Shown one piece after another: positions 13,560-35,538 of a DNA stretch of 41,093 nt. Position 1 is the stretch's first letter; each line of letters opens with the position of its first letter. The notes under the pieces are model-generated. The model had not been told where the DNA came from. It saw only the letters and a program-made list of their open reading frames with translations, and ran no database searches. The stretch is from assembly GCA_001595885.1 (NCBI GenBank), contig LSSH01000085.1:1-41093 (forward strand), read 5' to 3'. The position numbers were made by a program, and so were the translations under genes. Source of the stretch: Candidatus Proteinoplasmatales archaeon SG8-5 (GTDB lineage: Archaea > Thermoplasmatota > Thermoplasmata > SG8-5).

Positions 13560-13560
13560 A

Positions 13561-14820: not shown

Positions 14821-14985
14821 TCCACCGAACAGAAGCGTGACGAACGCTATTCCAGGCATGCCCAGTCATATCAGTGGTAAACCTTATCATATGGTCTGGA
14901 TATACCGTATCCGGCCCTTATCTCAGGATGGACCGAGTGTGTCAGCACCTGCATTCCGGACCTGAAAGAAGGGAGAGGTGAAGGC

Positions 14986-18816: not shown

Positions 18817-19202
18817 CACTCATCCTCCAGGTCCAGGACCAGGTTCCTGACGACGCATTCCTTTCCGTGAAGCACGTCTATCGGGCCGTTGCATTCGGGG
18901 CATGAGAACTGCGGTATAGCGATGTGGTACTCTTCGGTCTCCCCAGCCTTCATGGCGCCCTCGTAATCGCATCTCCGGCATTTCACCTTTGCCTGGATCG
19001 GTATAATGGTCAGGGCGTCGTCCTTGATGTCCGGCTCGTTTTCCACGAGGGCTCTGAAGCCGAATCGGAGCGCATCGTGCGAGAGGAAGCTTAGCTCGCC
19101 CACTTCGAGGACTATCTCCTTGACGAAGTTGAGGTTGTCGTGCTTGCCCATCTCACCTTTCACAAGTTCGACTATCGATGAGATCACAGAGAATTCGTGC
19201 AC
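18816..19202 (-). CDS. hypA: Hydrogenase nickel chaperone HypA
   Basis: MHEFS N-terminus (GTG start), CRRC and CPEC Zn motifs, GKE. Confidence 0.95.
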   Translation of the reverse strand: MHEFSVISSIVELVKGEMGKHDNLNFVKEIVLEVGELSFLSHDALRFGFRALVENEPDIKDDALTIIPIQAKVKCRRCDYEGAMKAGETEEYHIAIPQFSCPECNGPIDVLHGKECVVRNLVLDLEDE

Positions 19203-19426
19203 TATGCGTCCTCCATCTCAAGCATCTCCTCCCACACCGCGAGCGTTTGCTTGGCATCGGCCTCGCTCATCACCTTGATGGCAAAGCCAGCGTGGACGAG
19301 AACGTAATCGCCGAGATTCACGTCAACCATTGAGACGTTCGCCTTGTTGACGACCCCTTCCCCGTACTCCACGTTGGCGACGTCGCCATTGATCTCGATG
19401 ATCTTACCGGGTATTGCCAGACAGAT
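19202..19426 (-). CDS. hypC: Hydrogenase maturation chaperone HypC with an apparent ATC start codon
   Basis: Manual translation: (I/M)CLAIPGKIIEINGDVANVEYGEGVVNKANVSMVDVNLGDYVLVHAGFAIKVMSEADAKQTLAVWEEMLEMEDA*. Not in the ORF track. Confidence 0.92.
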   Translation of the reverse strand: MCLAIPGKIIEINGDVANVEYGEGVVNKANVSMVDVNLGDYVLVHAGFAIKVMSEADAKQTLAVWEEMLEMEDA

Positions 19427-21586: not shown

Positions 21587-21594
21587 GTACGACC

Positions 21595-22248
21595 TCAGAT
21601 CAAACCTAACTTCTGCAACAGGACGTCCAGGCCCTCGCCCGTCCTCGCGTCGGTGAAGACCACGGGAACGTGCGGATTTATCTCGCCCGCATCCCTCTCC
21701 AAAACGGCCGGGTCAACGCCCATGGCCTCTGCCAACGATATCTTGTTGACCACGATGATGTCTGACGTCCCCATCAATATCGGATGTTTCCTGACCATGT
21801 CGTCGCCCTCCGTGACCGAGACCACCGTGATACGCATGTCGCTGCCCAGCGGGAAATCGGCAGGGCAAACGAGGTTGCCCACGTTCTCTATGAAGAGCAC
21901 ATCGAGACCGGCCAGGTCGAGCTTTTCGAGCGCGTGGTCGACAAGGTGAGCGTCCAGATGGCACTCCTTGCCGGTGTTCACGTTGATGACCGGGATGCCG
22001 TGCCCGCTGAACCTCCGATAATCGTCGTCGCCGGCCACGTCGCCGGCAATAACACCGCATTTCACACCCTTCTCCTTCAGGATGTCAATGAGGCCTTCGA
22101 TAATGAGGGTCTTGCCCGAACCGATGGCTCCCTGGATGTCAAAGCATTTGACGCCGTGCGAGCGCAGGTGCTTGTGATTGTCCTCTGCCAGCTTCCTGTT
22201 CGCTGCGAGTATGTCAGTGCCCAGCTCAACGTCCTGCACAAGATGCAT
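21595..22248 (-). CDS. hypB: Hydrogenase nickel-insertion GTPase HypB
   Basis: GAIGSGKT, ECHLDAH, ENVGNLVCPADFPLG, SVTEGDD, NKI. Own TATA-like AAAACGTTAAATA just upstream. Confidence 0.97.
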   Translation of the reverse strand: MHLVQDVELGTDILAANRKLAEDNHKHLRSHGVKCFDIQGAIGSGKTLIIEGLIDILKEKGVKCGVIAGDVAGDDDYRRFSGHGIPVINVNTGKECHLDAHLVDHALEKLDLAGLDVLFIENVGNLVCPADFPLGSDMRITVVSVTEGDDMVRKHPILMGTSDIIVVNKISLAEAMGVDPAVLERDAGEINPHVPVVFTDARTGEGLDVLLQKLGLI

Positions 22249-22286
22249 GCTATCGAAAATGCAACCCCTGGCACGTATTTAACGTT

Positions 22287-22721
22287 TTACCCGTGCTCCA
22301 GTCCTTCGAACAACGAGACTAGCTCAGCCGCTGCCTTCCTCACAGGAGGCGAAAGGCCGTCGCCCGGCTCCGTTGATACGGGCCTGATTCCGATCACGAG
22401 AACCTTGCAGGAGCACCTGTCAATCAGCCTCTGGACGACGTGTCTGAGGGGCAGGTAATGGGTGTGGAAGCACACCTCGTCTATCGCCTCAAGTGGCACC
22501 GCGTCAATGGAACCCGCCTCACCCTCGATCATGGCCGCGTCCACTATGACAACGTGACTCGGTTGGATGGACGATATCTTCCCTGTGAAATTCTCCGGTT
22601 GGGTGCCCGCATTGAACACCGTGAACTTGGAGGAATCGGCCAGTGCGTCGGCGATGTGTGGGCCGACGCCGTCGTCACCGTTGAGCTCGTTGCCTATGCC
22701 TATCAGAACTGGATTGCTCAT
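22287..22721 (-). CDS. hycI: HycI-type hydrogenase maturation endopeptidase
   Basis: IGIGNELNGDDGVG, AGTQPEN, IVDAA, HTHYLPL. The true start is ATG 22721, not the longer ORF-track start. Confidence 0.88.
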   Translation of the reverse strand: MSNPVLIGIGNELNGDDGVGPHIADALADSSKFTVFNAGTQPENFTGKISSIQPSHVVIVDAAMIEGEAGSIDAVPLEAIDEVCFHTHYLPLRHVVQRLIDRCSCKVLVIGIRPVSTEPGDGLSPPVRKAAAELVSLFEGLEHG

Positions 22722-22765
22722 CCGGGCGGTTTCTTTACCAAGAAGTTCCGCAATCCCGCCGATGC

Positions 22766-23107
22766 TCACTCTACGATCACTTCTCCGCGGTTGAGATGGG
22801 CGAGTTCGTACTCTTCGGTCATCTCTATCGCGTCCTTGGGGCAGGACTCCTCGCACTGCCCGCAGAACGTGCACTTGTCCATGTCAAAGATAGGCCGTTT
22901 CTTGTCGTCCTTCTCTATCATGATGCAGGCCGCGCTTACGCAATCCTTCGCGCACATGCCGCAGCCGATGCACTTGTCCAAATGGAACTTGATCTTGCCC
23001 CGGAACCCTGGCGGCACCTCAAGCTTCTCGAAGGGGTACAGTACTGTAACTGGCTTCTTGCTAATCCGTCCAAGCAGAGTCGGTATCATCACACCTGTCG
23101 TCTTCAT
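22766..23107 (-). CDS. NuoI-like 2x[4Fe-4S] subunit of a group 4 hydrogenase
   Basis: TVLYPFEK...FRGK, CIGCGMCAKDC, CTFCGQCEESCP. Confidence 0.92.
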   Translation of the reverse strand: MKTTGVMIPTLLGRISKKPVTVLYPFEKLEVPPGFRGKIKFHLDKCIGCGMCAKDCVSAACIMIEKDDKKRPIFDMDKCTFCGQCEESCPKDAIEMTEEYELAHLNRGEVIVE

Positions 23108-23115
23108 GTTATCAC

Positions 23116-24297
23116 CTACCTATGCGGCTCCCCCTCATACCATTCGATCGAATATTTGCGGAGCTCTTCCTTCTCCCAGACCTTTGACGTCTCCCTATCT
23201 TTGTCGATTATGAGAACTCGGTCCATGCAGCCCATGCACGGGTCGATGCCTGCAACGACTAACGGAATATCGGCGATGTTGGCGCCCTTGAGCGTGTGCT
23301 GCACGTTCAGGATGTTGGCCAGTGTCGGCGCCCTGACCTTAAGGCGTTCGGGTTTGTCGGTCCCGTTCGCACGAAGGTGGTGTATGTCCTCGCCCCTTGG
23401 GGCCTCTGTGTGGCTGGTCGCCTCCCCGGGACCGACCTTCTTCGGCACCTTGACCCGTATTTCTCCTGCTGGTAGATTTTGCATCATGTACTTGCACATT
23501 TTGATGGACTCTACGGTCTCAAGGGCGCGCACGACCACCTGGGCATGAACATCCAGCGTGTCACTTGTGATGACCTCGAAGGGCAGTTCTCCGTAGGCTG
23601 CGTAGGGATCGTCCTTCCTGACGTCTACCTTCACGTTGGAGGCCCTGAGCCTTGGACCGACCGCGCACAGTCGCTTTGCATCCTCGGTCGTCAGTATGCC
23701 TACGCCCTGGGTCCTCTTGAGGATGGTCTTCTCGTTCAGTGCAACCTTTACGTAGTAGTCCATCCTCTCCAACAATGCGTCCATGCCCCTGATGATCATT
23801 TGTTTCTGGGCGTCCGTGATGTCCCTCCGGACACCGCCAACACAGTTGTAGGCGTAATTCACTCGGTTGCCAGTCAAATGCTCGAGTATGTCCTGTACAA
23901 TCTCCCTGTCGTCCCACGAGTACATGAACAGAGTGTCAAAGCCCATCTCGTGGCCGGCCACTCCGAGCCATAACAGGTGGCTGTGTATCCTTTCCAGCTC
24001 GTTTACGAGGGTTCGCAGATACAGTCCGCGCGGCGGCGGGTCCGTGCCCAGCACGTATTCCGTGACCTGGCAGAAATTCGTAGTGTGGGTGAACGAACAT
24101 ATCCCGCAGATCCTCTCGGTGAGATACTGGTTCTGGACGTACGTCTTGGTCTCGGCGAGCTTCTCGATGCCGCGGTGGATGTGGCCTATCTTGATGTCGG
24201 CGTCAACGACCGTCTCGCCCTCGACCGTGATCATGAAACGCTCCGGTTCCTTCAGGGCCGGGTGCTGCGGCCCAATGGGTATCCTGACCTCGGCCAT
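23116..24297 (-). CDS. Group 4 [NiFe]-hydrogenase large (catalytic, NuoD-like) subunit
   Basis: IGPQHPALKEP, L1 ERICGIC, ERIHSH, EAPRGE, L2 DPCMGCMDR followed by a cleavable C-terminal extension. Confidence 0.95.
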   Translation of the reverse strand: MAEVRIPIGPQHPALKEPERFMITVEGETVVDADIKIGHIHRGIEKLAETKTYVQNQYLTERICGICSFTHTTNFCQVTEYVLGTDPPPRGLYLRTLVNELERIHSHLLWLGVAGHEMGFDTLFMYSWDDREIVQDILEHLTGNRVNYAYNCVGGVRRDITDAQKQMIIRGMDALLERMDYYVKVALNEKTILKRTQGVGILTTEDAKRLCAVGPRLRASNVKVDVRKDDPYAAYGELPFEVITSDTLDVHAQVVVRALETVESIKMCKYMMQNLPAGEIRVKVPKKVGPGEATSHTEAPRGEDIHHLRANGTDKPERLKVRAPTLANILNVQHTLKGANIADIPLVVAGIDPCMGCMDRVLIIDKDRETSKVWEKEELRKYSIEWYEGEPHR

Positions 24298-24776
24298 CAG
24301 GCATCACCCCCTTCGGTCGCTGGTGGTTCCGGTCGTCTTGGGTCGACCCAATCTTTCCTCAACGGAAAGCCTTTGTTGCCCCAGTTCTCGGGCAGGAGTA
24401 GCAATCGCATGTCCGGATGACCCTTGACCTTGACGCCCATCAACTCGCTTATCTCGCGCTCGTACAACACTGCCCCGGGTAAGATGGGTGTAATGGTGTT
24501 GACCGTGGGATCTGATTTTGGAAGCTTGACCCTGATGCTCATGAACGTCGTGTCGATGAAAACGTGATAGAGGAGTTCCAGTTCGTCACCGTTGTCAAAG
24601 GAGGTTATCGTAGAGATATGATAGGCCCCATACTGTTCCTTCAGATGTTTTACCACGCCCAACAGGTTCTCCCGTTTTGTGTTTATGTACACACGCCTTT
24701 CCTTGGGGCTTTCCACGCTGTCCACCATTGCACCAAGGCTGCCTGTCAGTTTCTGAACCATCTCCTGTGTTGTCAT
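24297..24776 (-). CDS. NuoC-like subunit of a group 4 hydrogenase
   Basis: ELLYH, LYEREISELMGV...GHP...LLLPENW...FPLRKD. Confidence 0.92.
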   Translation of the reverse strand: MTTQEMVQKLTGSLGAMVDSVESPKERRVYINTKRENLLGVVKHLKEQYGAYHISTITSFDNGDELELLYHVFIDTTFMSIRVKLPKSDPTVNTITPILPGAVLYEREISELMGVKVKGHPDMRLLLLPENWGNKGFPLRKDWVDPRRPEPPATEGGDA

Positions 24777-24777
24777 T

Positions 24778-25206
24778 TCATCCCTCCTTCAAGGCGGTGA
24801 GTAGTTTCACCACGCCATCGAGTATCGCCTCGGGCTTCGGCGGGCAGCCGGGAATGTACGCGTTCACGGGAATGACCTTGTCAATACCGCCTTCTACATT
24901 GTAACACCCGTCAAAAACTGCTCCGGAGATTCCGCACTCGCCGCAAACCACTACAAACTTCGGTTCGGGCATTTGCTCGTATATCCTTATCAATCGATCT
25001 TTCATCTGCGCGGTCACGGGTCCTGTGCACACTAGGACGTCAGCGTGTCTAGGTGTGCCCTGCAATAGGACCCCGAAACGTTCGGCGTCAAGCCTTGGCA
25101 TCAGCGCTGCCAGTATCTCAATATCGCATCCGTTACAACTCCCGCTGTTAAAATGCAGAACCCAAGGAGATTTAACACGGGACCATTTAACTAGGTTGTC
25201 GAGCAT
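24778..25206 (-). CDS. Group 4 [NiFe]-hydrogenase small (NuoB-like) subunit
   Basis: SPWVLHFNSGSCNGCDIE, PRHAD, GECG, IPGCPPKP; RBS GGAGGTG before ATG 25206. Confidence 0.95.
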   Translation of the reverse strand: MLDNLVKWSRVKSPWVLHFNSGSCNGCDIEILAALMPRLDAERFGVLLQGTPRHADVLVCTGPVTAQMKDRLIRIYEQMPEPKFVVVCGECGISGAVFDGCYNVEGGIDKVIPVNAYIPGCPPKPEAILDGVVKLLTALKEG

Positions 25207-25330
25207 CGATCGCACCTCCGGGTAAACCCGCCGAGTAAATGGATAGTTGTTAATTAATATTTGTCCCCTATTTGCATGATAACATTGCGATAATCAGAAA
25301 TACAAAGGTTTTTTACTGCGGTTATCATTA

Positions 25331-25654
25331 ATGCATTGTATGGGAATGGGTGTCGGTTATTTTGTTAGGGCGTTGCCGCTTCAGACCGATGAGGGTTCAG
25401 ACACGATATGCATCTACCTGATTATATTGGGTGCTATACTCATCGGCCTTTATCTCGGCCTGTACCTGTATAACAAGATGCTTGTCGGGAAGAGGAGGAA
25501 GCAGCATCCGTGCAGGTTCTGCGGACACATGGTCGACGCGGTGTCGGACTGCTGCAGCGCGCCCGTGGTTGAGAGGTTCATGACCGGTAAGTGCACTAAA
25601 TGCGGAAAGGAATGCAAGATCACGTGTGCAAGGTGCAAGAGACAGCTGACCTGA
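25331..25654 (+). CDS. Small single-TM protein with a Cys-rich metal-binding C-terminus
   Basis: Hydrophobic helix, basic stop-transfer KRRK, then CRFC, DCC, CTKCGKEC, CARC. Alternative starts at 25340 or 25346. Confidence 0.7.
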   Translation: MHCMGMGVGYFVRALPLQTDEGSDTICIYLIILGAILIGLYLGLYLYNKMLVGKRRKQHPCRFCGHMVDAVSDCCSAPVVERFMTGKCTKCGKECKITCARCKRQLT

Positions 25655-26311
25655 TCATTTGAATATCTCGCCCGTCTCCCTGCACCAGAGGACAATGTCC
25701 AGGTGGGCCATGGGTATACCGATTGAACGGGAGAACGCATCCATTTTCCTTTCTATTTCAAGGTATATCGATCTTGATAACGAGCTCGGGACCCCGTTAA
25801 TCACGCCCAATTCCTTTAGGTTTCTGAGGATGTGCCTGTCCAGTATTGCCAGGTCCTCGCCCTTGCCTATGTTCCTGAGGAAATGGCTCGCCTCCTTGAG
25901 ACCGAGCCCGGTCACGTTCTTGACAAGCCATTCCCTTGCTTCAAAGGCATCGGGCAAATCCTGAATAACACCCTTTATCGGCGTTCTACCCCCCGGACCG
26001 AACCGCTCCCTCGCCTCTGTAATCCTCTTAGCCTTCGTGTGCTTGAATCTCACCGGGTCGATGGCCGAGGACAGCTCATCGGCGTCCGCGTGATATAACA
26101 GGTCCTGGCTTACCATGTGTTCCACCTTGTCCCAGCATAGTCTTGCCTTGGATTGGGGCGTCAGAAGGCAGAATGTCAATTCGGCAAAGATGGTCTCCTC
26201 GCTGCCGCTCTTCCAAATCTCTCTGAACTCGTTCAATCTGGCCGTGATCTGTCCATGTCTAGCCTTATGGATAGTCCTGACCTCTTGAATCGCCTTTTCG
26301 TCGTAAGGCAT
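25655..26311 (-). CDS. ogg: 8-oxoguanine DNA glycosylase/AP lyase (Ogg2 type)
   Basis: ELTFCLLTPQ, HhH GLGLKEASHFLRNIG, AILDRH, C-terminal LW...TGEIFK. Confidence 0.93.
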   Translation of the reverse strand: MPYDEKAIQEVRTIHKARHGQITARLNEFREIWKSGSEETIFAELTFCLLTPQSKARLCWDKVEHMVSQDLLYHADADELSSAIDPVRFKHTKAKRITEARERFGPGGRTPIKGVIQDLPDAFEAREWLVKNVTGLGLKEASHFLRNIGKGEDLAILDRHILRNLKELGVINGVPSSLSRSIYLEIERKMDAFSRSIGIPMAHLDIVLWCRETGEIFK

Positions 26312-26317
26312 GACGGA

Positions 26318-26893
26318 TTACCAGTTCTCTGCAAGTAGCTCGAAGTGGGCTTGCGGGTGGGCGCAGGCCGGACACATGCCCGGGGCCTCGGGACCCTCGT
26401 GAAGGTAACCACAGTTTATGCAGCGCCAGACCACCGTCTCCTGCTTCTTGAACACGGTGCCGTTCTCGATGTTCTTCATCAGGCCCAAGTAACGGGCCTC
26501 GTGCTGCTTCTCGGCCACGGCAATGGCCTTGAAGGCGGCCGCTATCTCCGGGAACCCTTCCTCCTCCGCCGTCTCGGCGAAGCTCGGGTACATCTCGGTG
26601 TGCTCGTAGTTCTCCCCCTCGGCGGCGTGTCTCAGGTTCACGGCGGTGGTGTCGATGATGCCCGCGGGGAAATCCGCATTGACGTTCGCGGTTCCCCCCT
26701 CCAGGAACTTGTACAGGCGTTTGGCATGCTCCTTCTCCTGGTTGGCCGTCTCCTCGAACACCTCGGATATCTGGCGATAGCCCTCCTTCTTTGCCTTGCT
26801 TGCGTAGAAGGTGTAGCGGTTCCTCGCCTGAGATTCGCCGGCGAACGCGGTCAAAAGGTTCTTCTCCGTTTGCGTTCCTTTAAGATTTGCCAT
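26318..26893 (-). CDS. rbr: Rubrerythrin
   Basis: [29 protein letters not shown]-terminal CINC...CPACAHP. Confidence 0.96.
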
Positions 26894-26904
26894 TTTTTTT
26901 CCTC

Positions 26905-27321
26905 CTATAAGGTTATATCCTTTTGCCTCAGGTAATCGCCGAACTCCTTATCCACGCCTTTGATGTGATTGATCAGCCAATTGACCAAGAAGACGTTGAC
27001 GGATTCGGCCAGGGCGCCCGTGGCACCCTCCTCCTCGAAGTCCTCGACCAACCTGTTAAGGGAGTCCTTGAACACGCCGTGCTGCTCCCTGTGGGCACCG
27101 AGACCGGGGTATGTCAATTCGGTCATGTGCTTCTCCTCGGTGGAAAAATGGAAGTCCGTATAATCTATCAGGAAGTCCAGGGTTTTCATGATTTGGGATG
27201 TTCCCTGGGTGACCTCTATAGCCTCGGAGAGTTCGCGCAGCCGCTGTATCAGCATCTTATGCTGTTCGTCAATCAACTCAACTCCCACGGATAGATTCGA
27301 ATCCCATTCGATCGAAACCAT
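26905..27321 (-). CDS. Bacteriohemerythrin
   Basis: [37 protein letters not shown]. Confidence 0.93.
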
Positions 27322-27402
27322 AGATTGCCCCCCGTTGACCAATTACCTGAGTTTATGCCTACAGCTAGGTCTTTCGCATTATTTATTCATTTACCCGAAC
27401 GA

Positions 27403-27585
27403 CTATTCCATCTCTATGGCGCCCACCGGGCATGCGGATTCGCATGCACCGCACTCGATGCACTCGTCTGGGTTGACGACGTGGGCCTTGCCGTCCTTAA
27501 TCTCGAAGACCTTAGGGTCAGCGGGACAAACATCGTAGCATTCCCCCGCCCCTTCGCATTTGGCTTGGTCGATTTTCGGTGGCAT
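27403..27585 (-). CDS. Dicluster ferredoxin, probably 7Fe ([3Fe-4S]+[4Fe-4S])
   Basis: CEGAGECYDVCP (second Cys replaced by Ala) and CIECGACESACP. Confidence 0.88.
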   Translation of the reverse strand: MPPKIDQAKCEGAGECYDVCPADPKVFEIKDGKAHVVNPDECIECGACESACPVGAIEME

Positions 27586-27611
27586 TATTTCACCTAACCC
27601 AGAGGTATATT

Positions 27612-28517
27612 TCAAACCTTTAATAGGTTTTCCCTTTTGACAAAATATATCTTCTCCATGTGGTGGGGGTGATAGCGCTTCTTCGCTTCCCTCAGACCTC
27701 TTATTCCGAGGTCTGACTCGCGGTTGATGTACCTGTAATCCGAGGATATGGTCTTCGCGGCCTCGTTGTTGATGGCCTGGTAGATGCCGTCGAAATCCGG
27801 CATGGCCTTCTCGATGTGAATGACCGCCGTCTCCGGATTCATCTCCTCGTAGACTGAAATCGCCTCTATCTCATGATTCATCCTGATAGCGATGCCGGAT
27901 AGGCACAGCTCGAAGAAATTGTCCATTGAGTACATCACCGCGATCCTCTCGTTCTCAAGCATCTGGTTGGAGGCACAGTCCCTCCACAGACACCATTTCC
28001 TGATGAAGGTCATTACCTCGTCGAAGTTCGAGGCTGCAATTGGCTCGACCGTGTGCTCATATTTCCTGTTATACCTGTTCAGGCGGTTGCGTATCTTCAG
28101 ATAATTCTTGCCCGCCAGCTCTGCCAGGTCCGATGCCAGGTATACGTAGTCATAATAATCCCTGTTCGGTTGAAATTTTAAATCCGGATGTATGCCCGAT
28201 ATCCATTCCTTTGTCGGTTCCTCAATGCCCACTATCGACCGGATTCTCCCGTTCGCCTTGGCAAGCTCGATTATGTCGTTCAATGAATCGGCGTTCGGCC
28301 GCCCGATCGGCGGTCTCAGCCTGACCTCGTCCTCGAACTCCGTGCTTATCAAAAGGTGGTCATCGCGGTCGATGAACTTCACGTCCACGTAATGGAGCCA
28401 GCTGACCAGTGTCGTGAACACGGTCTCGCTGTGGCGGGGCGGATTATTGGCATATATCCTTTCGAAGATCTCCTTGTGTTCCAGTTTCAGGGGTTCGAAG
28501 TCGTCCAGCGAGAGCAT
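27612..28517 (-). CDS. DUF2156 / MprF C-terminal-like aminoacyl-tRNA-dependent transferase domain protein (soluble)
   Basis: RDYYDYVYLASDLAELAGKNYLKIRN, IHIEKA, GIYQAIN, YINRESDLGIRGLREAKKRYHP. Confidence 0.85.
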   Translation of the reverse strand: MLSLDDFEPLKLEHKEIFERIYANNPPRHSETVFTTLVSWLHYVDVKFIDRDDHLLISTEFEDEVRLRPPIGRPNADSLNDIIELAKANGRIRSIVGIEEPTKEWISGIHPDLKFQPNRDYYDYVYLASDLAELAGKNYLKIRNRLNRYNRKYEHTVEPIAASNFDEVMTFIRKWCLWRDCASNQMLENERIAVMYSMDNFFELCLSGIAIRMNHEIEAISVYEEMNPETAVIHIEKAMPDFDGIYQAINNEAAKTISSDYRYINRESDLGIRGLREAKKRYHPHHMEKIYFVKRENLLKV

Positions 28518-28518
28518 G

Positions 28519-28935
28519 TCATTCCTCCGGTTCGAAGACCATGGGCTCTCCTGGAAGCTCTTTGAAACCGAGGGGCGTGTAAAACTCCCTGGTCCCGGGT
28601 TCTGCCACCAGGCCAATCCAGCACAATCCCCTTCTCACGCAGTGGTCGACGAGCGCCCTGATGATGTCGTGGCCGATGCCCAAGCCGCGCCATTCCTGCA
28701 GCACGGCAACGTCCTGTATCCATGCGTCCGATGTACCGTCGGATATTACCCTGCCCATACCCACGGCCTTTCCTGCCGCGTTCACCGCGACCGCGAAGGC
28801 AAAGCTGCCCTCGATTATTGACTCGATGCTTTCCGGTGGATAATGTTCCTTCCACCAGCCGCCTGCCTCGTATAGTTCGATGATCTCTTCCTCAGGCCAG
28901 GCATCCACCAGTTGTATCTTCACGTCCTCTTGCAC
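28519..28935 (-). CDS. GNAT family N-acetyltransferase
   Basis: VGMGRVISDG..DAWIQDVAVLQEWRGLGIG, FYTPLGF. Confidence 0.9.
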   Translation of the reverse strand: MQEDVKIQLVDAWPEEEIIELYEAGGWWKEHYPPESIESIIEGSFAFAVAVNAAGKAVGMGRVISDGTSDAWIQDVAVLQEWRGLGIGHDIIRALVDHCVRRGLCWIGLVAEPGTREFYTPLGFKELPGEPMVFEPEE

Positions 28936-28944
28936 CGGAACACC

Positions 28945-29535
28945 CTATTTCATGACCTCGTAGAATTCCTCATACGGCATTTTGGACAGGTTCTCGGGCA
29001 ACCGGTTGAACACTTCCTCGAACTCGGGTATCCTGTGTGAACGCTCGTGCACCTCTTTGGACTCCCAGAATGTTAAGAGGATGAACTTCACGGGTTGGAA
29101 ATCAAGGTCGCTGGTGTCCCCGGGTATGCAGCTGCCCACCGCCGACACGCCCGATAACCTCAGGACCTTGGAGCCGAGGAAACCGTCGTAAGCCTCGGTG
29201 GCCCTGCACAACTGCATTGCCTTCTCAATGAACTCATTCTCCTGGTCCGGCTTGATCTCCACGTAATTGGCCGCGCAGACCATTGGCTTTGACGTCCATT
29301 CCATAACCTCCGCCTCTTCCGGGTTGATCAGCGTGAATGGTATTCCGAACGCCTCCAATTTCCGGCCTGCCAGCTCAGAGCGGTGGCCGGTGTTGCAGTA
29401 GATCGATACCTCCCTTTCCCTCAAGAGGTCCTGCCAATATTCCAGGTCATAATGCGGGATGTTGACGGAGCCTTTCACGTGGCCCATGACGAATTCCTCC
29501 CTGGACCTCACGTCCACAATCAGTTTTCCTGTCAT
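28945..29535 (-). CDS. Rhodanese fused to an ABM/sulfur-oxygenase-reductase-like dimeric alpha-beta barrel domain
   Basis: IVDVRSREEF..GHVKGSVNIP and YCNTGHRS (rhodanese); C-terminal LCRATEAYDGFLG, TFWESKEVHERSH, PYEEFYEV. Confidence 0.8.
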   Translation of the reverse strand: MTGKLIVDVRSREEFVMGHVKGSVNIPHYDLEYWQDLLREREVSIYCNTGHRSELAGRKLEAFGIPFTLINPEEAEVMEWTSKPMVCAANYVEIKPDQENEFIEKAMQLCRATEAYDGFLGSKVLRLSGVSAVGSCIPGDTSDLDFQPVKFILLTFWESKEVHERSHRIPEFEEVFNRLPENLSKMPYEEFYEVMK

Positions 29536-29544
29536 GGGCTCACC

Positions 29545-30045
29545 TCACATGAACCGCTCGAAACGGTCCTTCTTTGCCTTGCATATCGGACAGACTGCAG
29601 GCGGTTCCTCCTTTGCCGCCAGGTATCCGCACACTCGGCATCTCCATACTGGATAGCTCAACTTCTCACTCCCTTGTACCTTTATCTCGGTCGATCTGAA
29701 CTGCGGTCTTGTATCCCGGTCCGGCGACCGCCTTTCCGGGATTGGTTCGGGGGATTTCTCACCGTCAGCGATCTCCTGCGAAACGTATAAAGCGCAATAG
29801 CACGCACCAAAATCGTTCAGGTCCTGGTCCCGGTAATCGCAGGGGCATATTACATCGATGTCCTCGTCCTTATCCCCAGCCGCCAACCTGCAAGGGCAGG
29901 CCCAATATCCGTACCTCTCCTGATTGATGAGGAGGCTCCTCACCAGGTCCCTGGCGAATCCCACGTCAGGATTCAGGTTGTATCCAGACTTATCTGCCTC
30001 GTTCTTAAGCCTGTTATGGATTATGTCAACCTTTTCGTCGGTCAT
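29545..30045 (-). CDS. Ferredoxin:thioredoxin/disulfide reductase catalytic subunit with a C-terminal rubredoxin-like domain
   Basis: CPCR...CPC...CYC FTR-c motif, then WRCRVCGY...CPIC. Confidence 0.9.
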
Positions 30046-30050
30046 CTCGC

Positions 30051-30329
30051 TCAACCGATCGCCTCTTTGATCTGGTCCTCCTTGTAACCGACTATGCAAT
30101 GCTCATCGTTGATGACGAGGGTGGGGAATGAGCATGCCGGGTTCCATCGCTTGACCTCGCCCATGATCGCCTCCTTCTCCTCCGAACCGGCTTGGTCGAC
30201 AAAAATGTAGTCGTACGCAACCCCCAGGTCGTCCAACAGTTGCTTGGTCTTCTTACACCAGATGCAGGTGCTCAGTGCGAACAGCCTGAACTTGCCCTTG
30301 TCCTCGCCCTCTACATGCTCATATTTCAT
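30051..30329 (-). CDS. Glutaredoxin-like (NrdH-type) protein
   Basis: [23 protein letters not shown]; adjacent to FTR. Confidence 0.9.
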
Positions 30330-30358
30330 CATATCACCTTCTATCAATCTTGAACTCC

Positions 30359-30916
30359 TCAATGTTTATATGTGTTGATGTGAACGAATTCCTTAAAGGC
30401 CTTCCTTTCCGGCCTCTCTGTTTCCGCCTCAATCTGTTGCCCGGACATCAACGGATTAACCTCGTCCGACTTCCCGCCGACAATGACGAGCGTGATGACG
30501 TTCATCTCGTCCGGGATGTCAAGTATTTCCCGCGTCTTCCTCGGGCTGAAACCGGCGATGGGGTGCGCCACCAGGCCCAATTCGGTGGCCCTAAGGATGA
30601 GGAAGGCAGTGGCCATGCCCGTGTCGAAGAGGTAGTACTCCCTGTCCCTGATGACGTAGTCGTCGTCCTTCTTGCTGAACACGGCGATAATCATCGACGC
30701 GGCCTGTGCCCACTCGTTGCCCTTAGAGAGGGCGCCGTGCATCCTTTCCAGGATTTCAGCGTCGTGGACGAACACGTATTGCCAGGGCTGGTGGTTGAAA
30801 CATGAGGCTGATAACTGTGCGTGTCTTGCTAGGTCGTGAATTAGGTTCTCGTTTATCTCGACCGGCTCCAAAGAGCGGTACGCCCTCCTCTTCTCTATGG
30901 CCTCTTTCACGTCCAA
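30359..30916 (-). CDS. Nitroreductase family protein
   Basis: AIEKRRAYR, SASCFNHQPW, DTGMA..LILRATELGL, ERK; TTG start. Confidence 0.92.
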   Translation of the reverse strand: MDVKEAIEKRRAYRSLEPVEINENLIHDLARHAQLSASCFNHQPWQYVFVHDAEILERMHGALSKGNEWAQAASMIIAVFSKKDDDYVIRDREYYLFDTGMATAFLILRATELGLVAHPIAGFSPRKTREILDIPDEMNVITLVIVGGKSDEVNPLMSGQQIEAETERPERKAFKEFVHINTYKH

Positions 30917-30925
30917 AGCGATGCC

Positions 30926-31426
30926 TCACAATGATCTTTGAAATATCCATGGACCTCCGCTTCTCAGGCTTTGGAGGTTTATGTCAAGAAGCTCAATATG
31001 CTCCTTCTCGAAATCTGCCAACCTGTGGAACAGCTGGCGTATGTTATCGTCGTCCGTTATCTTCAAGTTATTGGCGTAGAAGGCCATGGACCTCTTCTCT
31101 ACCATTATGGCGTACTCAAGAGCCTTCTCGGGATCGCTGTCCCTGAAGACCCCGGGCAGCTCGTCCACGACGAACATCTCGCTCTTGCCCTCGATCGAAA
31201 CATCTATCTGCTCTGTGTCGTCGAACTCATCCAGCCTGTCAAGCTGGCGGTCGTACTCCTCCTCCAGCCACCTGATGTGGTCGACCTCCATGTTCACCAG
31301 GTGGGATATCATCTTCTGACCGGCCCTGTTCCTGACGAAGGAGCGCATATTGTTGTAGAACTCGTATCCGAACTGCTCGATATCGATGGCCTGTTTGATT
31401 ATGGCCAGTGAGGTGTCGATGCCCAT
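30926..31426 (-). CDS. Ferritin-like (rubrerythrin diiron domain only) protein
   Basis: AIDIE..GYEFY, EVDH, AIMVEKRSMAFY, EKEH. Confidence 0.85.
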   Translation of the reverse strand: MGIDTSLAIIKQAIDIEQFGYEFYNNMRSFVRNRAGQKMISHLVNMEVDHIRWLEEEYDRQLDRLDEFDDTEQIDVSIEGKSEMFVVDELPGVFRDSDPEKALEYAIMVEKRSMAFYANNLKITDDDNIRQLFHRLADFEKEHIELLDINLQSLRSGGPWIFQRSL

Positions 31427-31437
31427 TTATGCTCCCC

Positions 31438-31929
31438 CTAGGGGCCGACGTGCATCATCGGCCAGTAATCGTCGTAATCCTCGAACTTGAGGCTGTTCTC
31501 CTTCTCGACCTTGAGTATGTTGTAATGGCCTTCTTCCATCTGGGCAAAGTACTCGAGTGTGCGCTTCTGTTCTGGGTCTTGCAGGATTCTGGCGAAGGCG
31601 AGATAGAAGTCCTTGGCTGCGAGTTCAGCGTTCATTGCACTTTCCAGAACGTCGCTGATAGGCACCTGCTCGTCGGGTATGATGATATTGGGCAGGGGTA
31701 CAGGACTTGCCCCCGGAAGAACGGGCTCCCTGCCTGGTATGTTCTCCCTGAAGGCTTCGATCAGGTACTCCCTGTGCCTTTCCTCTTCGGTGGCCAGGAA
31801 AGTCAGCCTGTCCTTCAGGTATGCGTTTCTCACCCTCCCCGCCAGTTTTGAATATACGTCCTTGCTCTCGACCTCGCTCATGATCGCGGCGAGGAAGATA
31901 TCCTCCAGGCTGTACCCGCTCAGGTCCAT
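31438..31929 (-). CDS. Ferritin-like (rubrerythrin diiron domain only) protein
   Basis: AIMSEVESKDVY, EERH, AMNAELAAKDFY, EEGH. Start at ATG 31929 or 31935. Confidence 0.85.
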   Translation of the reverse strand: MDLSGYSLEDIFLAAIMSEVESKDVYSKLAGRVRNAYLKDRLTFLATEEERHREYLIEAFRENIPGREPVLPGASPVPLPNIIIPDEQVPISDVLESAMNAELAAKDFYLAFARILQDPEQKRTLEYFAQMEEGHYNILKVEKENSLKFEDYDDYWPMMHVGP

Positions 31930-31942
31930 TGTCATCTCCCCT

Positions 31943-32458
31943 TCAGTCGCCCGGAGCGGGGAACGTGAACAGCGGAGCACGGGCCCCCATTTCCTTGTCA
32001 AGCATGAAGAGGCCGCTGCCGCCCTTGACCAGCGCCAGCTGCTGTACGATCTCGTCAGCCGAGGCTTCCTCCTCAACCTGCTCCTCCACGAACCATTGCA
32101 GGAAGTTGTTCGTCGCGTGGTCCTTTTCCTTGATCGCCAGGTCCACGAGCTTGTTTATCATACCGGTGACCTTTGTTTCGTGCTTGTACGCGGCCTTGAA
32201 GATTGCCAATGGGTCCTTCCAGGACGTCTGAGGTTTTTCGATTGTATCGAGGGTCACGCTCCCGCCTCGCTCCAGTACGTAGTCGTATATCTTGATGGCG
32301 TGATAGAGTTCTTCCTGGGCCTGGATCTTCATCCAATGAGCGAAACCGGGCAGGCTCTTGCTGTCCAGGTCGGCAGACATTGAAAGATAAAGGTATGATG
32401 AATAAAGTTCCGCGTTCACCTGCAGGCTCAGCGCCTTCTCCACCTTCTTGTTCAACAT
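31943..32458 (-). CDS. ftnA: Non-heme ferritin
   Basis: QVNAELYSSYLYLSM, QAQEELYHA, HETKVT, FLQWFVEEQVEEE. Confidence 0.95.
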   Translation of the reverse strand: MLNKKVEKALSLQVNAELYSSYLYLSMSADLDSKSLPGFAHWMKIQAQEELYHAIKIYDYVLERGGSVTLDTIEKPQTSWKDPLAIFKAAYKHETKVTGMINKLVDLAIKEKDHATNNFLQWFVEEQVEEEASADEIVQQLALVKGGSGLFMLDKEMGARAPLFTFPAPGD

Positions 32459-32467
32459 GTCGACACC

Positions 32468-32842
32468 TCAGCTCTTCCACAGGCCGTGGATGTTGCAGTA
32501 TTCCCTGGCCGATATCTTCTCGGCCGTGCACATGAACAAGGCCTCCGGGGGGTCTCCTGGCTTCAGGTATTTCCTGTAGCTCCTGTCCTCGGTCACCAGC
32601 TCGATCCACTCTATGTAGTGCTTCTCCTCCATGGGGTGGAGTGTCGAGCCGACGTAGATCTTGACCACGTCTCCGTCCCTCTCGATGACGGGCACGTGCT
32701 TCTCAACGGCCATTTCGGCGGTCTTTTCCTCCATCAGAACCATCGGCTCCCCGCAGCAGACCAGCTCTCCGGGCCCGCCGTGGATCATGTGCACGATGTT
32801 CCCGCACATCTCACACTTGTATATCTCGTTCAGTTCGGTAAT
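32468..32842 (-). CDS. dfx: Desulfoferrodoxin (2Fe superoxide reductase) with an apparent ATT start codon
   Basis: (I/M)[14 protein letters not shown]...[29 protein letters not shown]; RBS GGAGGTGA 4 nt before the ATT. Confidence 0.92.
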
Positions 32843-32853
32843 ATCCTCACCTC

Positions 32854-33369
32854 CTAATCCTCCAAGCTCAGGTGCTCGGAATCGTACCAGTATCCGGTCC
32901 TGCCCAGGAAGTCGAACTCCTCCTCCAGGATGTGATAGTGGTTCTTCTCCTGATGAATGATCTCCTTTATGACGTCCCGGGCACCCTCGTCCTCTGTCTT
33001 TTCCAGTATCATTGAATAATAGTCGATCGCCTGCTTTTCGCTGTCCATCGCCGCATTGAGGGCGTCGAGGTCGTTCGTGTCCGGGTTCGCGCCCTCCGTG
33101 ACCCGCAGGTCCTTTGGGAACACGGGAAGGTTCGCATACTTCTTGCTGGAGTTGACGAGTTTCTCGTATTCTGCTTTGTCTATACAGTCCTCGAACAGCT
33201 TCTGAAAGGTATCGAGATGCATTTGCTCATCCTTTGCGAGGCTTTGGAAGATCCTGCTTCCGATCTCGTTCGAGGTCTGTGCGGCCGCCCTCATGTAGAA
33301 CGCATAGCCGTCCTTTTCCATCTGGATGGCCTGCTGTATGGCCTCCTTCACACCTATATCTTCGTTCAA
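32854..33369 (-). CDS. Ferritin-like (rubrerythrin diiron domain only) protein
   Basis: [35 protein letters not shown] start after GGTGA; alternative GTG at 33390. Confidence 0.85.
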
Positions 33370-33386
33370 ATAATCACCCGTTCTAC

Positions 33387-33539
33387 TCACTTAACCCTCT
33401 TCATCGGATGACCGCAGCAGTAGGGCAGGGCGTTGGGCTCTGAATCGAACTCTATCACCGAGCAACTGCAGTCTGCTCCACAATCGCATTCATACTTCAC
33501 CGGTTTCCCGGCTTCCTTACATCCGCATGTCTCACACAT
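33387..33539 (-). CDS. 50-aa Cys-rich mini-protein (metallothionein/desulforedoxin-like)
   Basis: MCETCGCKEAGKPVKYECDCGADCSCSVIEFDSEPNALPYCCGHPMKRVK*; RBS GGAGGTGA; exactly fills the operon gap. Below the ORF-track length cutoff. Confidence 0.8.
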   Translation of the reverse strand: MCETCGCKEAGKPVKYECDCGADCSCSVIEFDSEPNALPYCCGHPMKRVK

Positions 33540-33554
33540 TTTTTTCACCTCCAA

Positions 33555-34730
33555 TTATCCTAGTATTTTTCCTAACTCTTTACCTATTGATTTGACGTTC
33601 CCCAGCTCTTCAGTGTCGGGAACGAACTTCAGGTTCACATACTCGATCGGAACCTCCCAGCCCATGTCCTTCATGAACTTCTCGATCTCGCCGGCAGCCT
33701 GGCCACCCCATCCGAACGAGCCGAACGCGAACCCCAGGCGGTCCTTCGGCCTCAGGCCCTTCAAGTAAGTTAGAAAGCCTCCCATCGACGGAAGCATTCC
33801 GTTGTTGATGGTTGGCGAACCTATCAGAATCAGTTTTGATGTTATCAGGTCGGTCATGACATCCGAGATGTGGGTGTTCTTTAAGCTGCGGACGGTCACT
33901 GGAACGTCCGCCTCGCTCAGACCCTCTGCGAGGGCGTATGCGATTCTCTCGGTGGAGCCCCACATCGTGTCGTAGACTATGAGGGCCCTTGCCTCGGTTT
34001 CGTGGTTTGCCCATTTCACGTACTCGGCAAGTATGTCCGGTATGCGGGAGCGCCAGATGATGCCGTGGCTTGGTGCTATCATGTCGATGTCCAGACCGCC
34101 CAGCGCTTCCAGGGCCTTGCCGACCTGGGTGCCGTAGGGCATGACGATGTTCGCGTAATATGTGGCTGTCGCTTCCTTCAGGACACCCCATTCAATCTCG
34201 TCGTCGAACCTCTCCGCGCTTGCTATGTGCTGGCCGAAGGCATCGTTGGGCAGGAGGAGGTTCTCCTCGGGAATATAGGTGACCATTGAATCCGGCCAGT
34301 GTACCATTGGCACGTGAACGAAGACCAGTGTCCTCTTGCCGATGCTCAGCTCTTCACCGGACTGGGCGACGTGGAAGTTCCAATCCCTCTTGTAGTGCCT
34401 GCGAAGGCCCTTCTCGCCCTGGACCGAGGTAATGAGTGTGGCGTTCGGAGCCTCCTCCAATATCTTGGGCAACGAGCCCGAGTGGTCCATCTCGACATGG
34501 TTGGAGACCACGTAATCTATCTTTGAGGGGTCGATTATCTCCTTGATCCGGGCCAACATCTCGCCGTACAGGTAATGCTTGACGGTGTCGACCAAGACCA
34601 CCTTCTCGTCGATTATCAGGTAGGCGTTGTACGTGGTCCCCCTGTGGGTCTTGTATCCGTGGAAATCCTGGATATGCCAGTCGATGCCGCCCACCCAATA
34701 TATGCCCGGTTTTATCTCGATTTTATTCAA
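33555..34730 (-). CDS. fprA: Flavodiiron protein FprA (O2/NO reductase)
   Basis: GTTYNAY, NHVEMDHSG, HWPD, NDAFGQH, HG, flavodoxin YDTMWGSTE and FGSFGWGG. TTG start at 34730. Confidence 0.95.
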   Translation of the reverse strand: MNKIEIKPGIYWVGGIDWHIQDFHGYKTHRGTTYNAYLIIDEKVVLVDTVKHYLYGEMLARIKEIIDPSKIDYVVSNHVEMDHSGSLPKILEEAPNATLITSVQGEKGLRRHYKRDWNFHVAQSGEELSIGKRTLVFVHVPMVHWPDSMVTYIPEENLLLPNDAFGQHIASAERFDDEIEWGVLKEATATYYANIVMPYGTQVGKALEALGGLDIDMIAPSHGIIWRSRIPDILAEYVKWANHETEARALIVYDTMWGSTERIAYALAEGLSEADVPVTVRSLKNTHISDVMTDLITSKLILIGSPTINNGMLPSMGGFLTYLKGLRPKDRLGFAFGSFGWGGQAAGEIEKFMKDMGWEVPIEYVNLKFVPDTEELGNVKSIGKELGKILG

Positions 34731-34734
34731 TTTT

Positions 34735-34893
34735 TCACTCCATTTCGAATTGGTCCTTCGAAGCCCCGCAAAGGGGACATGTCCAGTCATCCGGCAGGTC
34801 GCTGAATTCAATACCCGGTTCAATGTCGTTGTCCGGGTCCCCCTTTTTCGGGTCATACAAATATCCGCAGACCGTGCACCTGTACTTGTCCAT
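34735..34893 (-). CDS. Rubredoxin
   Basis: Manual translation: [52 protein letters not shown]. Confidence 0.96.
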
Positions 34894-34894
34894 A

Positions 34895-35323
34895 TCAACT
34901 ACCTCCTTCCTTAGCTAAGCAATCCTTGCAAACACCCTTGAAATAACCGTGCACCTCATCGATCCTGTGTCCCCCCTGCAGCACTTCTTTGAGATACGGG
35001 CATTCTACCTCGATATCAATGATCTCCCCGCATTTCTTACAAAGGAAATGCTGATGAGGATTAATAATACTATCGAATCTCAGCTCGGACTCCGAAATTG
35101 TCAGGGCGTGAATCAAATTATGTGACCTCAACGTGTCCAAGGTGTTGTAGACCGTCGTCCTGGACAATGACGGATTCTTCTTTTTCAGGTCCCTGTAGAT
35201 CATGTCCGCGTTCGGATGGTTCCTGTTCTTGTCCAGATATCTCAATATTTCCAACCTTTGCGGGGTTACCTTGATGCCGTTCTTCCTAAGAAAAAGGGCA
35301 TAATCGTCCAAAGCCACCGTCAT
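34895..35323 (-). CDS. Fur-family regulator, probably PerR
   Basis: [23 protein letters not shown]...[16 protein letters not shown]; heads a peroxide-defence cluster. Confidence 0.9.
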
Positions 35324-35339
35324 TGTATCATTTCCTAAT

Positions 35340-35383
35340 TTGTAATTGTTTCAATTTAAGACAGAAACCTCCCTCATATTTAA
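35340..35383 (-). promoter_or_regulatory. TATA box plus putative PerR/Fur 7-1-7 operator
   Basis: Minus strand TTAAATA (35383-35377), then TTGAAAC-A-ATTACAA (35354-35340) at the expected transcription start. Confidence 0.5.
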
Positions 35384-35538
35384 CTGATTTCCCTTAAACG
35401 TTAATCCGGTTTCAAATTCTCCTTTTTTTATATATGAGAAAACTATTTATACAAATATCTATTTTCAGTTAATAATCTATCTATCATCATAAAAATTGAC
35501 GGATAGATATCTGGATGAGAGAAAACGGAGGAAATTGA

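Follow-up and report, generated by a model that had tools for sequence, protein, structure and literature searches.

A rhodanese joined to a single-domain relative of the sulfur oxygenase reductase N-terminal half in anaerobic archaea and bacteria

One open reading frame encodes a rhodanese and a single ABM-fold domain

In Candidatus Proteinoplasmatales archaeon SG8-5, a short gene on contig LSSH01000085.1 (the target gene) is encoded within a co-directional gene array and specifies a rhodanese followed by one domain that resembles the N-terminal half of sulfur oxygenase reductase (SOR), hereafter termed the half-SOR domain. All 41,093 nucleotides of the contig were analyzed and are referred to as the window; coordinates are window positions, and residues are numbered along the 196-amino-acid (aa) product (Table 1). 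A sequence-only reading of the window had proposed this open reading frame (ORF), and it proved to be real, running on the minus strand from ATG to TAG. The plus-strand reading of the same interval was rejected, being full of stops. The codons of C47, C110, H163, H167, and E189 were each verified and carry the residue numbers given earlier; those of R52, C87, N90, W157, and E164 were verified in addition.

Pfam recognized Rhodanese at residues 4-65 (E 3.8e-11; 43.8 bits versus a cut-off of 22.2) and the antibiotic biosynthesis monooxygenase family, ABM, at residues 85-175 (E 1.6e-8; 35 bits), and the Pfam SOR model (PF07682) reached 29.7 bits versus a cut-off of 25. NCBIfam assigned no family to the 196-aa protein. 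The protein belongs to the rhodanese and to the ABM superfamily. Its AlphaFold 2 model had a mean pLDDT of 94.8 and a pTM of 0.84, and residues 82-196 modeled alone had a pLDDT of 83.6. In both Pfam and the model the rhodanese was followed by a single 115-aa ABM domain, with no second one; the other half of SOR is absent here, as had been claimed from the letters.

The rhodanese part was modeled as alternating strands (E) and helices (H) at E4-8, H12-17, H28-39, E42-46, H51-63, E67-69, and H72-76 (pLDDT 88-98). A six-residue loop with the catalytic Cys first and an Arg last is the mark of sulfurtransferase rhodaneses, and the loop CNTGHR, beginning at C47, is of this active type, in line with the earlier assignment. 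C47 and R52 were kept in every one of 90 family proteins, a set consisting of the query, 75 proteins from a word-indexed search, 13 additions from domain searches, and P0078. The best solved relatives of the rhodanese domain, found with phmmer and profile searches of PDB sequences, included 3tp9, 3r2u, PspE (2jtq), and coenzyme A (CoA)-persulfide reductases.

Table 1. Positions of the target gene, its parts and residues, and neighboring features. Positions are those of the window unless a locus is named.
Feature	Position	Strand	Basis or remark
Target gene	28945..29535	-	196 aa plus TAG stop, ATG start; rhodanese plus half-SOR domain
Minimal rhodanese domain, residues 1-78	29302..29535	-	Pfam Rhodanese, profile positions 13-86 of 102
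Rhodanese active-site loop, C47-N-T-G-H-R52	29380..29397	-	Codons verified; C47 and R52 in 90/90
Single ABM-fold domain, residues 82-196, nearest the SOR N-terminal half	28948..29292	-	Profile A2
C110, equivalent of SOR C31 (essential, persulfide-carrying Cys)	29206..29208	-	Alignment; 87/90
H163-E164-R-S-H167, equivalent of SOR H86-E87-x-x-H90 (two iron ligands and Glu)	29035..29049	-	Alignment; H163 and H167 86/90 each
E189, equivalent of SOR E114 (third iron ligand)	28969..28971	-	Alignment; 87/90
Co-directional array of 18 genes around the target	25655..35323	-	Pfam scan and ORF coordinates
Ferredoxin-thioredoxin-reductase (FTR) catalytic domain plus rubredoxin-like domain	29545..30099	-	FeThRed_B 4.9e-21, RUBY_RBDX 4.3e-15
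Glutaredoxin-like gene, two genes upstream of the target	30051..30362	-	Pfam Glutaredoxin 9.3e-12
FTR-rubredoxin and glutaredoxin genes together	29545-30362	-	Ferredoxin-driven disulfide-reducing module
GNAT acetyltransferase and LPG_synthase_C (DUF2156) genes	27612-28935	-	Directly after the target
GNAT acetyltransferase and LPG_synthase_C (DUF2156) genes	L002 6595-7923		Directly after the target homologue
ORF of ~134 aa, Bathyarchaeota	L006 1560-1961; L007 6605-7015; L008 6608-7009		After the target homologue
EncFtn-like gene	L097 3630-3914; L099 6678-6962		E 5.3e-38; directly downstream of the target homologue
Group-4 type [NiFe] hydrogenase module with maturation genes	17743-25215
HypE-like AIR-synthase-fold gene	16642-17733
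Five consecutive ORFs without a Pfam family	9918-15540		Downstream of V4R and KaiC genes
One of these five ORFs	10719-13556		946 aa

The half-SOR domain is specifically related to the SOR N-terminal half

Searching PDB sequences with phmmer gave SOR as the best match (6m35_A, E 1.5e-7; 2cb2_A, ~2e-6; SOR chains overall, 1.5e-7 to 9e-5), with residues 83-195 of the query placed on SOR residues 3-120. The alignment paired C110 with C31, H163 with H86, H167 with H90, and E189 with E114. It thereby reproduced the pairing given in the sequence-only reading, and the spacings remarked on there (53 versus 55 and 22 versus 24 residues) follow from it. The first 50 residues also matched the SOR C-terminal half at a lower score (16-18 versus 30-32 bits), and this weaker match is no surprise, since a SOR monomer consists of two such domains in tandem.

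Profiles sharpened the relationship. Profile A1, built from 52 family members, matched SOR among PDB sequences at E 2.9e-13. Profile A2, built from 13 sequences of the domain at residues 82-196 only, matched 11 SOR sequences at E 1.9e-13 to 8.3e-11 among the 177,635 sequences searched, with profile positions 6-113 on SOR 7-120; next came TT1380 (1.1e-5, a partial match), CT0912 (9e-4), and the heme-degrading HmoB (0.025). Given these values for the domain-only profile, a chance likeness to SOR is excluded, and phmmer and both profiles agree that by sequence the domain is specifically like the SOR N-terminal half, as first proposed. When the Pfam SOR model was searched against the genomes of five carriers, no match was obtained at E <= 0.001, although four of the five contain half-SOR; the Pfam SOR model is too weak for genome searches of half-SOR.

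The SOR catalytic residues are not substituted in the family

Four residues of the domain, C110, H163, H167, and E189, were never substituted in the 90 family proteins, and every miss was a gap. The gaps belonged to three short proteins (P0064, P0073, and P0074), to P0075, which has an internal deletion, and to P0076, which consists of the rhodanese only. The Cys and His-His-Glu set singled out in the sequence-only reading is therefore conserved among homologues. C87, a strand 1 residue distinct from SOR C101 and C104, was likewise nearly invariant (87/90). A first conservation alignment comprised the query and 51 of the 75 proteins from the word-indexed search, and in it C47, R52, N90, C110, W157, H163, H167, and E189 were all invariant. 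The 24 proteins omitted from that alignment were fragments, one N-terminally extended form, and others left out for size (P0009, P0022, P0023, P0025, P0026, P0029, P0030, P0032-P0034, P0039, P0040, P0042-P0044, P0052, P0060, P0064, P0067, P0068, and P0073-P0076). Outside the set, the divergent 179-aa relative P0138 was seen by eye to lack the His pair.

In S. tokodaii SOR, the substitutions H86A, H90A, E114A, and C31A each abolish both activities, and C101A and C104A leave ~10-fold less activity; in SOR the Cys lies 9.5-13 Å from the iron, according to an excerpt of the published work on this enzyme (PMC7398979). Judged by alignment, every residue shown to be essential by SOR mutagenesis is retained here, as C110, H163, H167, and E189, together with E164.

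We then compared 39 half-SOR domains (27 of the 52 rows of A1 and 12 of A2) with 12 SOR N-terminal halves, 12 SOR C-terminal halves, and 8 ordinary ABM proteins. The 12 true SORs, with open frames of 308-326 aa, came from the phylum of genome G301 (8 proteins) and from one genus in the window's class (4 proteins); L129 was dropped from the ABM set as a near-copy of L125. Columns with the same residue in at least 90% of half-SOR and SOR N-terminal halves, and a different one in SOR C-terminal halves and ABM proteins, were N90/N9, C110/C31, T155/T78, H163/H86, E164/E87, H167/H90, and E189/E114. At the level of aligned columns, the positions specific to half-SOR and the SOR N-terminal half thus include the whole catalytic set plus its neighbor E87. 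A further position, G134/G55, lies in an insertion between strands 2 and 3 that both SOR halves possess as well and that is a gap in 8/8 ABM proteins.

A quick maximum-likelihood tree of these groups (71 rows, 117 columns, SH-aLRT support only) placed half-SOR and the SOR N-terminal halves on the same side of a branch with a support of 97. The SOR N-terminal halves formed a clade at 99 and the C-terminal halves one at 93, and the ABM root was weak (76). Because the tree groups half-SOR with the SOR N-terminal halves, it supports kinship of half-SOR with the catalytic half of SOR. The order inside this group was a polytomy, and the tree carries a long-branch warning. For these reasons we claim no direction of evolution; the fast C-terminal half may be pulled to the base.

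The half-SOR domain is predicted to form a homodimer

Two copies of residues 82-196 were predicted to pair with a score of 0.80 (best control, 0.00), a mark reached by 20/30 proteins solved as same-chain pairs and by 1/23 solved as single chains. The runs showed at least 95% contact agreement and a partner pLDDT of at least 87, and strand 188-195 of one copy lay against residues 122-131 of the other. These predictions point to homodimerization of the domain through its edge strands. Since ABM dimers are solved, the result may reflect likeness to them and is not proof.

The fusion is nearly universal in the family and occurs in anaerobes

All 23 matches to residues 82-196 alone also contained Pfam Rhodanese. 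The word-indexed search returned 75 proteins of ~195 aa, 69 of which had SOR and/or ABM beside Rhodanese; the other six had Rhodanese only and comprised the full-length P0049, the short or deleted P0064, P0073, P0074, and P0075, and the rhodanese-only P0076. P0163 is a stand-alone form of 126 aa that keeps the Cys, His, His, and Glu, and a search seeded with it returned nothing but P0163 itself. It emerged together with P0138 from a whole-protein search of a 1.84-billion library, where the 150 matches listed were mostly rhodanese domains; because such matches dominate the rows listed, that search says little about the second domain. The Atlas offered some leads: Actinomycetota have stand-alone clusters of 122-125 aa that bear the name 'SOR domain' or ABM, Chloroflexota have rhodanese-YdhR fusions, and a rhodanese-ABM cluster of 230 aa lacks a SOR signal. 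From these clusters, a rhodanese attached to a dimeric alpha+beta barrel domain seems to be an architecture that recurs.

The fusion of a rhodanese to half-SOR occurs in anaerobic archaea and bacteria. Relatives were found in metagenome-assembled genomes (MAGs) of Chrysiogenia, Syntrophaceae/Smithellaceae, Aminicenantes, Methanobacteriota, Thermoplasmatota, Bathyarchaeota, and Hermodarchaeota. The source genome, a 1.25-Mb assembly that is 70.5% complete, contained one copy of the target gene, and no full SOR was found in it. The domain profile matched 25 of 301 genomes of the window's phylum. Twenty-one of these, including the window's genome, matched at E <= 4.1e-29 in frames of 100-258 aa; the other four, all of one genus, matched at E 2.8e-8 to 4.2e-7 in frames of 263-323 aa and represent true SORs. 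These four genomes (G085, G209, G233, and G260; loci L121-L124) belong to the window's class and carry full-length SORs with open frames of 308-323 aa, so the half and full forms of SOR both exist within one archaeal class.

Marine-sediment DNA runs contained 0.96 (X1), 0.95 (X2), and 0.27 (X3) of the words of window positions 25600-35400, and the metatranscriptomic library X4 contained 0.05 of them. X4 yielded three error-free contigs, at 29618-29859 (FTR-rubredoxin), 33073-33268 (rubrerythrin-like), and 34113-34296 (flavodiiron). None of the X4 contigs covered the target gene, and, X4 being an RNA library, DNA may be present in it. The sediment contigs hint weakly at in situ expression of the array.

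The gene recurs next to oxygen-defense and sulfur-transport genes

In the window, the array around the target gene comprises, in order, genes for a Fur-family regulator, a flavodiiron protein, a rubrerythrin-like protein, desulfoferrodoxin, ferritin, two rubrerythrin-like proteins, a nitroreductase, a glutaredoxin, FTR-rubredoxin, the target, GNAT, LPG_synthase_C, ferredoxin, hemerythrin, rubrerythrin, and 8-oxoguanine glycosylase. The array is unusually long for oxygen defense, its regulator is PerR-like, and four of its genes are of the rubrerythrin type. Only 9 nt, containing GGTGA, separate the TGA stop of the FTR-rubredoxin gene from the ATG of the target. The FTR-rubredoxin and glutaredoxin genes form a ferredoxin-driven disulfide-reducing module adjoining the target, and in L002 a glutaredoxin gene likewise lies upstream of the homologue. 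The target is directly followed by a GNAT and LPG_synthase_C pair in the window as well as in L002; this pair could serve to make a small thiol or an aminoacylated compound, or to modify one.

Comparison of 29 loci (the window, L001-L011, and 17 further loci) revealed two recurrent neighborhood themes, oxygen and sulfur. Oxygen-defense genes, counted as rubrerythrin, desulfoferrodoxin, peroxiredoxin, ferritin, flavodiiron/ODP, catalase-peroxidase, hemerythrin, and Fur, flanked the target in 11/29 loci (the window, L002, L005, L100, L102, L104, L106, L108, L109, L110, and L112). These genes are often tightly packed, as in L104, L106, and L108, where the order is peroxiredoxin-ferritin-desulfoferrodoxin-target-rubrerythrin-flavodiiron. 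Split YeeE/YedE 'Sulf_transp' genes adjoined the target in 7/29 loci (L010, L011, L095, L097, L098, L099, and L101). A pyridine-nucleotide-disulfide oxidoreductase was present in five, four of them with YeeE/YedE (L010, L097, L098, and L099) and the fifth being L009; in L098 it follows 'Sulf_transp' genes that lie on the same strand. The carriers are anaerobes, and where a theme was recognizable it was oxygen defense or sulfur transport, in agreement with the sequence-only reading.

An encapsulated-ferritin-like (EncFtn-like) gene directly follows the target in L097 and L099, two of the loci in which YeeE/YedE genes and the disulfide oxidoreductase occur together. In three Bathyarchaeota loci the target is followed by an ORF without a Pfam family, whose copies share 65-81% identity; this ORF was not found beside the target in other lineages. 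A shared partner gene of unassigned family was rejected as a candidate, the unannotated neighbors being conserved only among close relatives.

Elsewhere in the window, the group-4 type [NiFe] hydrogenase module comprises 49-kDa, 30-kDa, and 20-kDa Complex-I-like subunits and a ferredoxin, with maturation genes for HypA, HypD, HypF, a HypB-like protein, and HycI, and a HypE-like gene lies close by. The host is taken to be anaerobic because of this hydrogenase and its hyp genes. The window is archaeal and also contains Cdc6/Orc1, KaiC, and V4R genes, the last two upstream of a run of five ORFs without a Pfam family.

Proposed function and the points that weigh against it

The best-supported proposal, which we judge to have about even chances, is that the protein uses iron to oxygenate cysteine-bound sulfane sulfur, that its own rhodanese supplies this sulfur, and that the enzyme serves the oxygen defense of anaerobes. 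Thiosulfate, polysulfide, or a low-molecular-weight persulfide would provide Cys47 with sulfane sulfur, which would then pass to Cys110, the presumed direction of sulfur flow. A mononuclear non-heme iron, putatively bound by H163, H167, and E189, would activate O2 and oxidize the Cys110-bound sulfur to sulfite, possibly with SOR-like release of H2S alongside. In addition, the rhodanese may convert sulfite to thiosulfate and so trap it, as in fusions of persulfide dioxygenase and rhodanese. Two copies of the second domain would pair via their edge strands into an alpha+beta barrel with two active sites, mimicking the pseudo-dimeric SOR monomer. As part of the oxygen-defense set of strict anaerobes living in sulfide, the enzyme would remove O2 and/or the reactive sulfane sulfur produced on contact of sulfide with O2, without a cost in NAD(P)H or ferredoxin. 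A broader proposal is that half-SOR represents a homodimeric 'mini-SOR', the ancestral form of SOR and a reductant-free, sulfur-fueled O2 scavenger of sulfide-dwelling anaerobes, from which the two-domain, 24-subunit SOR arose by duplication and loss of the second site; we consider this rather unlikely.

Several observations speak against the oxygenase reading. Foldseek recovered generic ABM proteins and SOR alike at E ~1e-7 and did not single out SOR. A VIA-align search of 48,161 chains, 65 of which reached Z >= 8, was headed by 7bio_A (Z 15.1; 92 aligned, root mean square deviation [rmsd] 1.7) and SnoaB (Z 15.0); 20 generic ABM proteins (Z 15.1-12.8, 92-98 aligned, rmsd 1.6-2.5) stood at or above SOR (6qpa_A, Z 12.8, 115 aligned, rmsd 3.1), and the domain model was placed on the SOR C-terminal half, residues 155-303. 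The best-scoring stretch on the Pfam SOR model was again the C-terminal half, and the NCBIfam SulOxRed model scored 22.6 bits versus a cut-off of 400. Residues 168-188, which align with the stretch around SOR C101/C104, contain no Cys, so the CxxC of SOR is missing, as the sequence-only reading had already noted. There was no sign of the 24-subunit SOR shell in the domain homodimer, the only assembly modeled. Neither oxygen-defense nor YeeE/YedE context was present in 11/29 loci: nothing relevant was seen in seven (L001, L003, L007, L008, L096, L103, and L107), L004 and L006 had a nitroreductase only, L105 MsrB only, and L009 the oxidoreductase only. Furthermore, in strict anaerobes the action of an O2-dependent enzyme is necessarily episodic. 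Finally, IsdG-type heme oxygenases use an Asn/Trp/His triad, which N90, W157, and H167 resemble.

Alternative explanations

The fold searches and the triad lead to one alternative, an ordinary ABM enzyme that is by chance fused to a rhodanese. It would be a cofactor-free monooxygenase with an organic substrate, or it would degrade heme in the manner of IsdG/HmoA. The expectation that SOR and not cofactor-free ABM enzymes would give the best structural matches did not hold, cofactor-free RslO4, SnoaB, and LsrG coming first by Z, with Z 11-12 for IsdG and MhuD and Z 10.5-12 for HmoB and MhuD. We do not count this ranking as a refutation of the kinship with SOR, since the fold is the same in every one of these proteins and their order tracks compactness; fold search was rejected as a discriminator, both programs recovering the ABM fold without separating SOR from cofactor-free ABM enzymes. 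In addition, the Pfam ABM score (35 bits), the HmoA-like names of database entries and Atlas clusters, and the existence in the Atlas of other rhodanese-ABM/YdhR fusions are in keeping with an ordinary ABM enzyme. By profile A2, however, HmoB and MhuD matched at E 0.025-0.06 versus 1.9e-13 for SOR, and SOR itself has the same Asn/Trp/His residues by alignment (N9, W80, and H90). C110, H163, E164, and E189 are unsubstituted, common to the SOR N-terminal half, and absent in the 8 ABM proteins, and the long insertion between strands 2 and 3 is common to SOR only, SOR alone having aligned with it in the fold searches. No heme uptake or synthesis genes were seen in the 29 neighborhoods, and the obligatory rhodanese points to a sulfur substrate. 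We therefore regard an ordinary ABM enzyme as very unlikely.

An O2-independent role in sulfur handling would account for the same catalytic set differently and is, in our estimation, an unlikely but reasonable proposition. Persulfide would be relayed from the rhodanese to C110, and the His-His-Glu metal would serve as a Lewis acid or redox center; variants are sulfane-sulfur disproportionation or reduction, sulfur traffic in the damage and repair of Fe-S clusters, and a ferredoxin-driven depersulfidase working with glutaredoxin and FTR. The anaerobic host fits this, as do the thiol-redox module flanking the target (with a glutaredoxin also in L002), the YeeE/YedE transporters in seven loci, and the disulfide oxidoreductase in five. 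SOR, moreover, has a reductase/disproportionation half-reaction of its own, but both SOR activities together depend on the set conserved here, as stated in part of the same study of SOR (PMC7398979). The glutaredoxin and FTR neighbors are limited to the window and L002, whereas the strongest recurrent neighbors act on O2, superoxide, and peroxide and not on sulfur (11/29 loci). SOR is not known to be active without O2, which also weighs against this alternative. A sensory role, with the iron site or the two cysteines reporting O2 or sulfane sulfur to an oxygen-defense regulon, would suit the Fur-family regulator at the head of the regulon that contains the target and the DUF438/hemerythrin/PAS protein encoded directly downstream in L112. 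Yet Pfam and NCBIfam detected no DNA-binding or signaling output domain in the 196 aa, the whole enzyme catalytic set is kept without substitution, and the gene usually lies among structural defense genes and not beside a regulator, which makes a sensor highly improbable.

Comparison with known systems

The oxygenase reading draws on SOR (PF07682; 2cb2 and 6m35), with which the domain shares the ABM-type fold, the long insertion between strands 2 and 3, and counterparts of C31, H86, E87, H90, and E114. SOR differs in consisting of two ABM-like halves in ~308 aa where the target has one ABM domain of 115 aa, in possessing the C101/C104 pair and assembling into a 24-subunit hollow sphere, and in not being fused to a rhodanese. 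The hosts differ too: those of SOR are aerobic or facultative thermoacidophilic sulfur oxidizers, whereas those of half-SOR are anaerobes from sediments. Having a single ABM domain without the C101/C104 pair or evidence of a shell, the target falls outside the SOR family in its present definition.

Fusions to rhodaneses are frequent among persulfide dioxygenases, as excerpts of two publications describe (PMC12934615, PMC9163753). Fusions of the CstB type (3r2u and 3tp9) would follow the same logic, a non-heme iron persulfide oxygenase combined with a rhodanese, and the rhodanese of the target matched theirs at E 7.3e-7 and 5.1e-6 (phmmer). Their oxygenase has a metallo-beta-lactamase fold, not an ABM fold, and their domain order is reversed relative to the target, where the rhodanese comes first; the likeness is one of analogy, not of membership. 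In Aquifex aeolicus, where the rhodanese Aq-477 and a full-length SOR are separate proteins, Aq-477 is proposed to load sulfur chains and pass them on to SOR, according to the part of the SOR study that treats it (PMC7398979); the target would hold the same partnership in one chain.

Generic ABM proteins (PF03992: SnoaB, LsrG, IsdG/MhuD, and TT1380) share with the domain its ferredoxin-like fold (Z 10-15) and its predicted strand-swapped homodimer. None of the features found here, namely the Cys, His-x3-His, Glu, and long insertion, occurs in the 8 ordinary ABM proteins compared, and by profile A2 the sequence likeness of generic ABM proteins is weaker than that of SOR by 8 or more orders of magnitude. 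CoA-disulfide/persulfide reductases (3nta, 3icr, and 8a56) have a related rhodanese domain (E 1e-3 to 1e-2). As flavoproteins, they use NAD(P)H to reduce persulfide, whereas the target has no flavin domain.

Implications

The sequence-only reading had called the protein undescribed, and a search of the full-text literature, with subscription journals largely outside its reach, found neither an account of a rhodanese-half-SOR architecture nor one of a SOR with a single domain. In databases such proteins bear generic or misleading names ('rhodanese-like', 'antibiotic biosynthesis monooxygenase', and 'heme-degrading monooxygenase HmoA'). This matters for annotation: sulfur-cycle pipelines based on Pfam may score half-SOR as SOR and so report aerobic sulfur oxidation in anaerobic MAGs, and other pipelines name half-SOR genes heme oxygenases.

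SOR has so far been known only as a large self-compartmentalizing enzyme of thermoacidophilic sulfur oxidizers. A 115-residue domain with the full essential set and a fused sulfur donor, small and soluble, would be a tractable minimal model of SOR, and half-SOR bears on the questions of the origin of SOR and of its minimal catalytic unit. For the anaerobes that carry it, the protein is a candidate for a new oxygen-defense reaction, in which O2 would be removed at the expense of sulfane sulfur and not of cellular reductant. Such a reaction would link reactive-sulfur and reactive-oxygen stress in sulfidic sediments and, if the 'mini-SOR' proposal were true, would form a fourth arm of oxygen defense beside flavodiiron proteins, superoxide reductase, and rubrerythrin.

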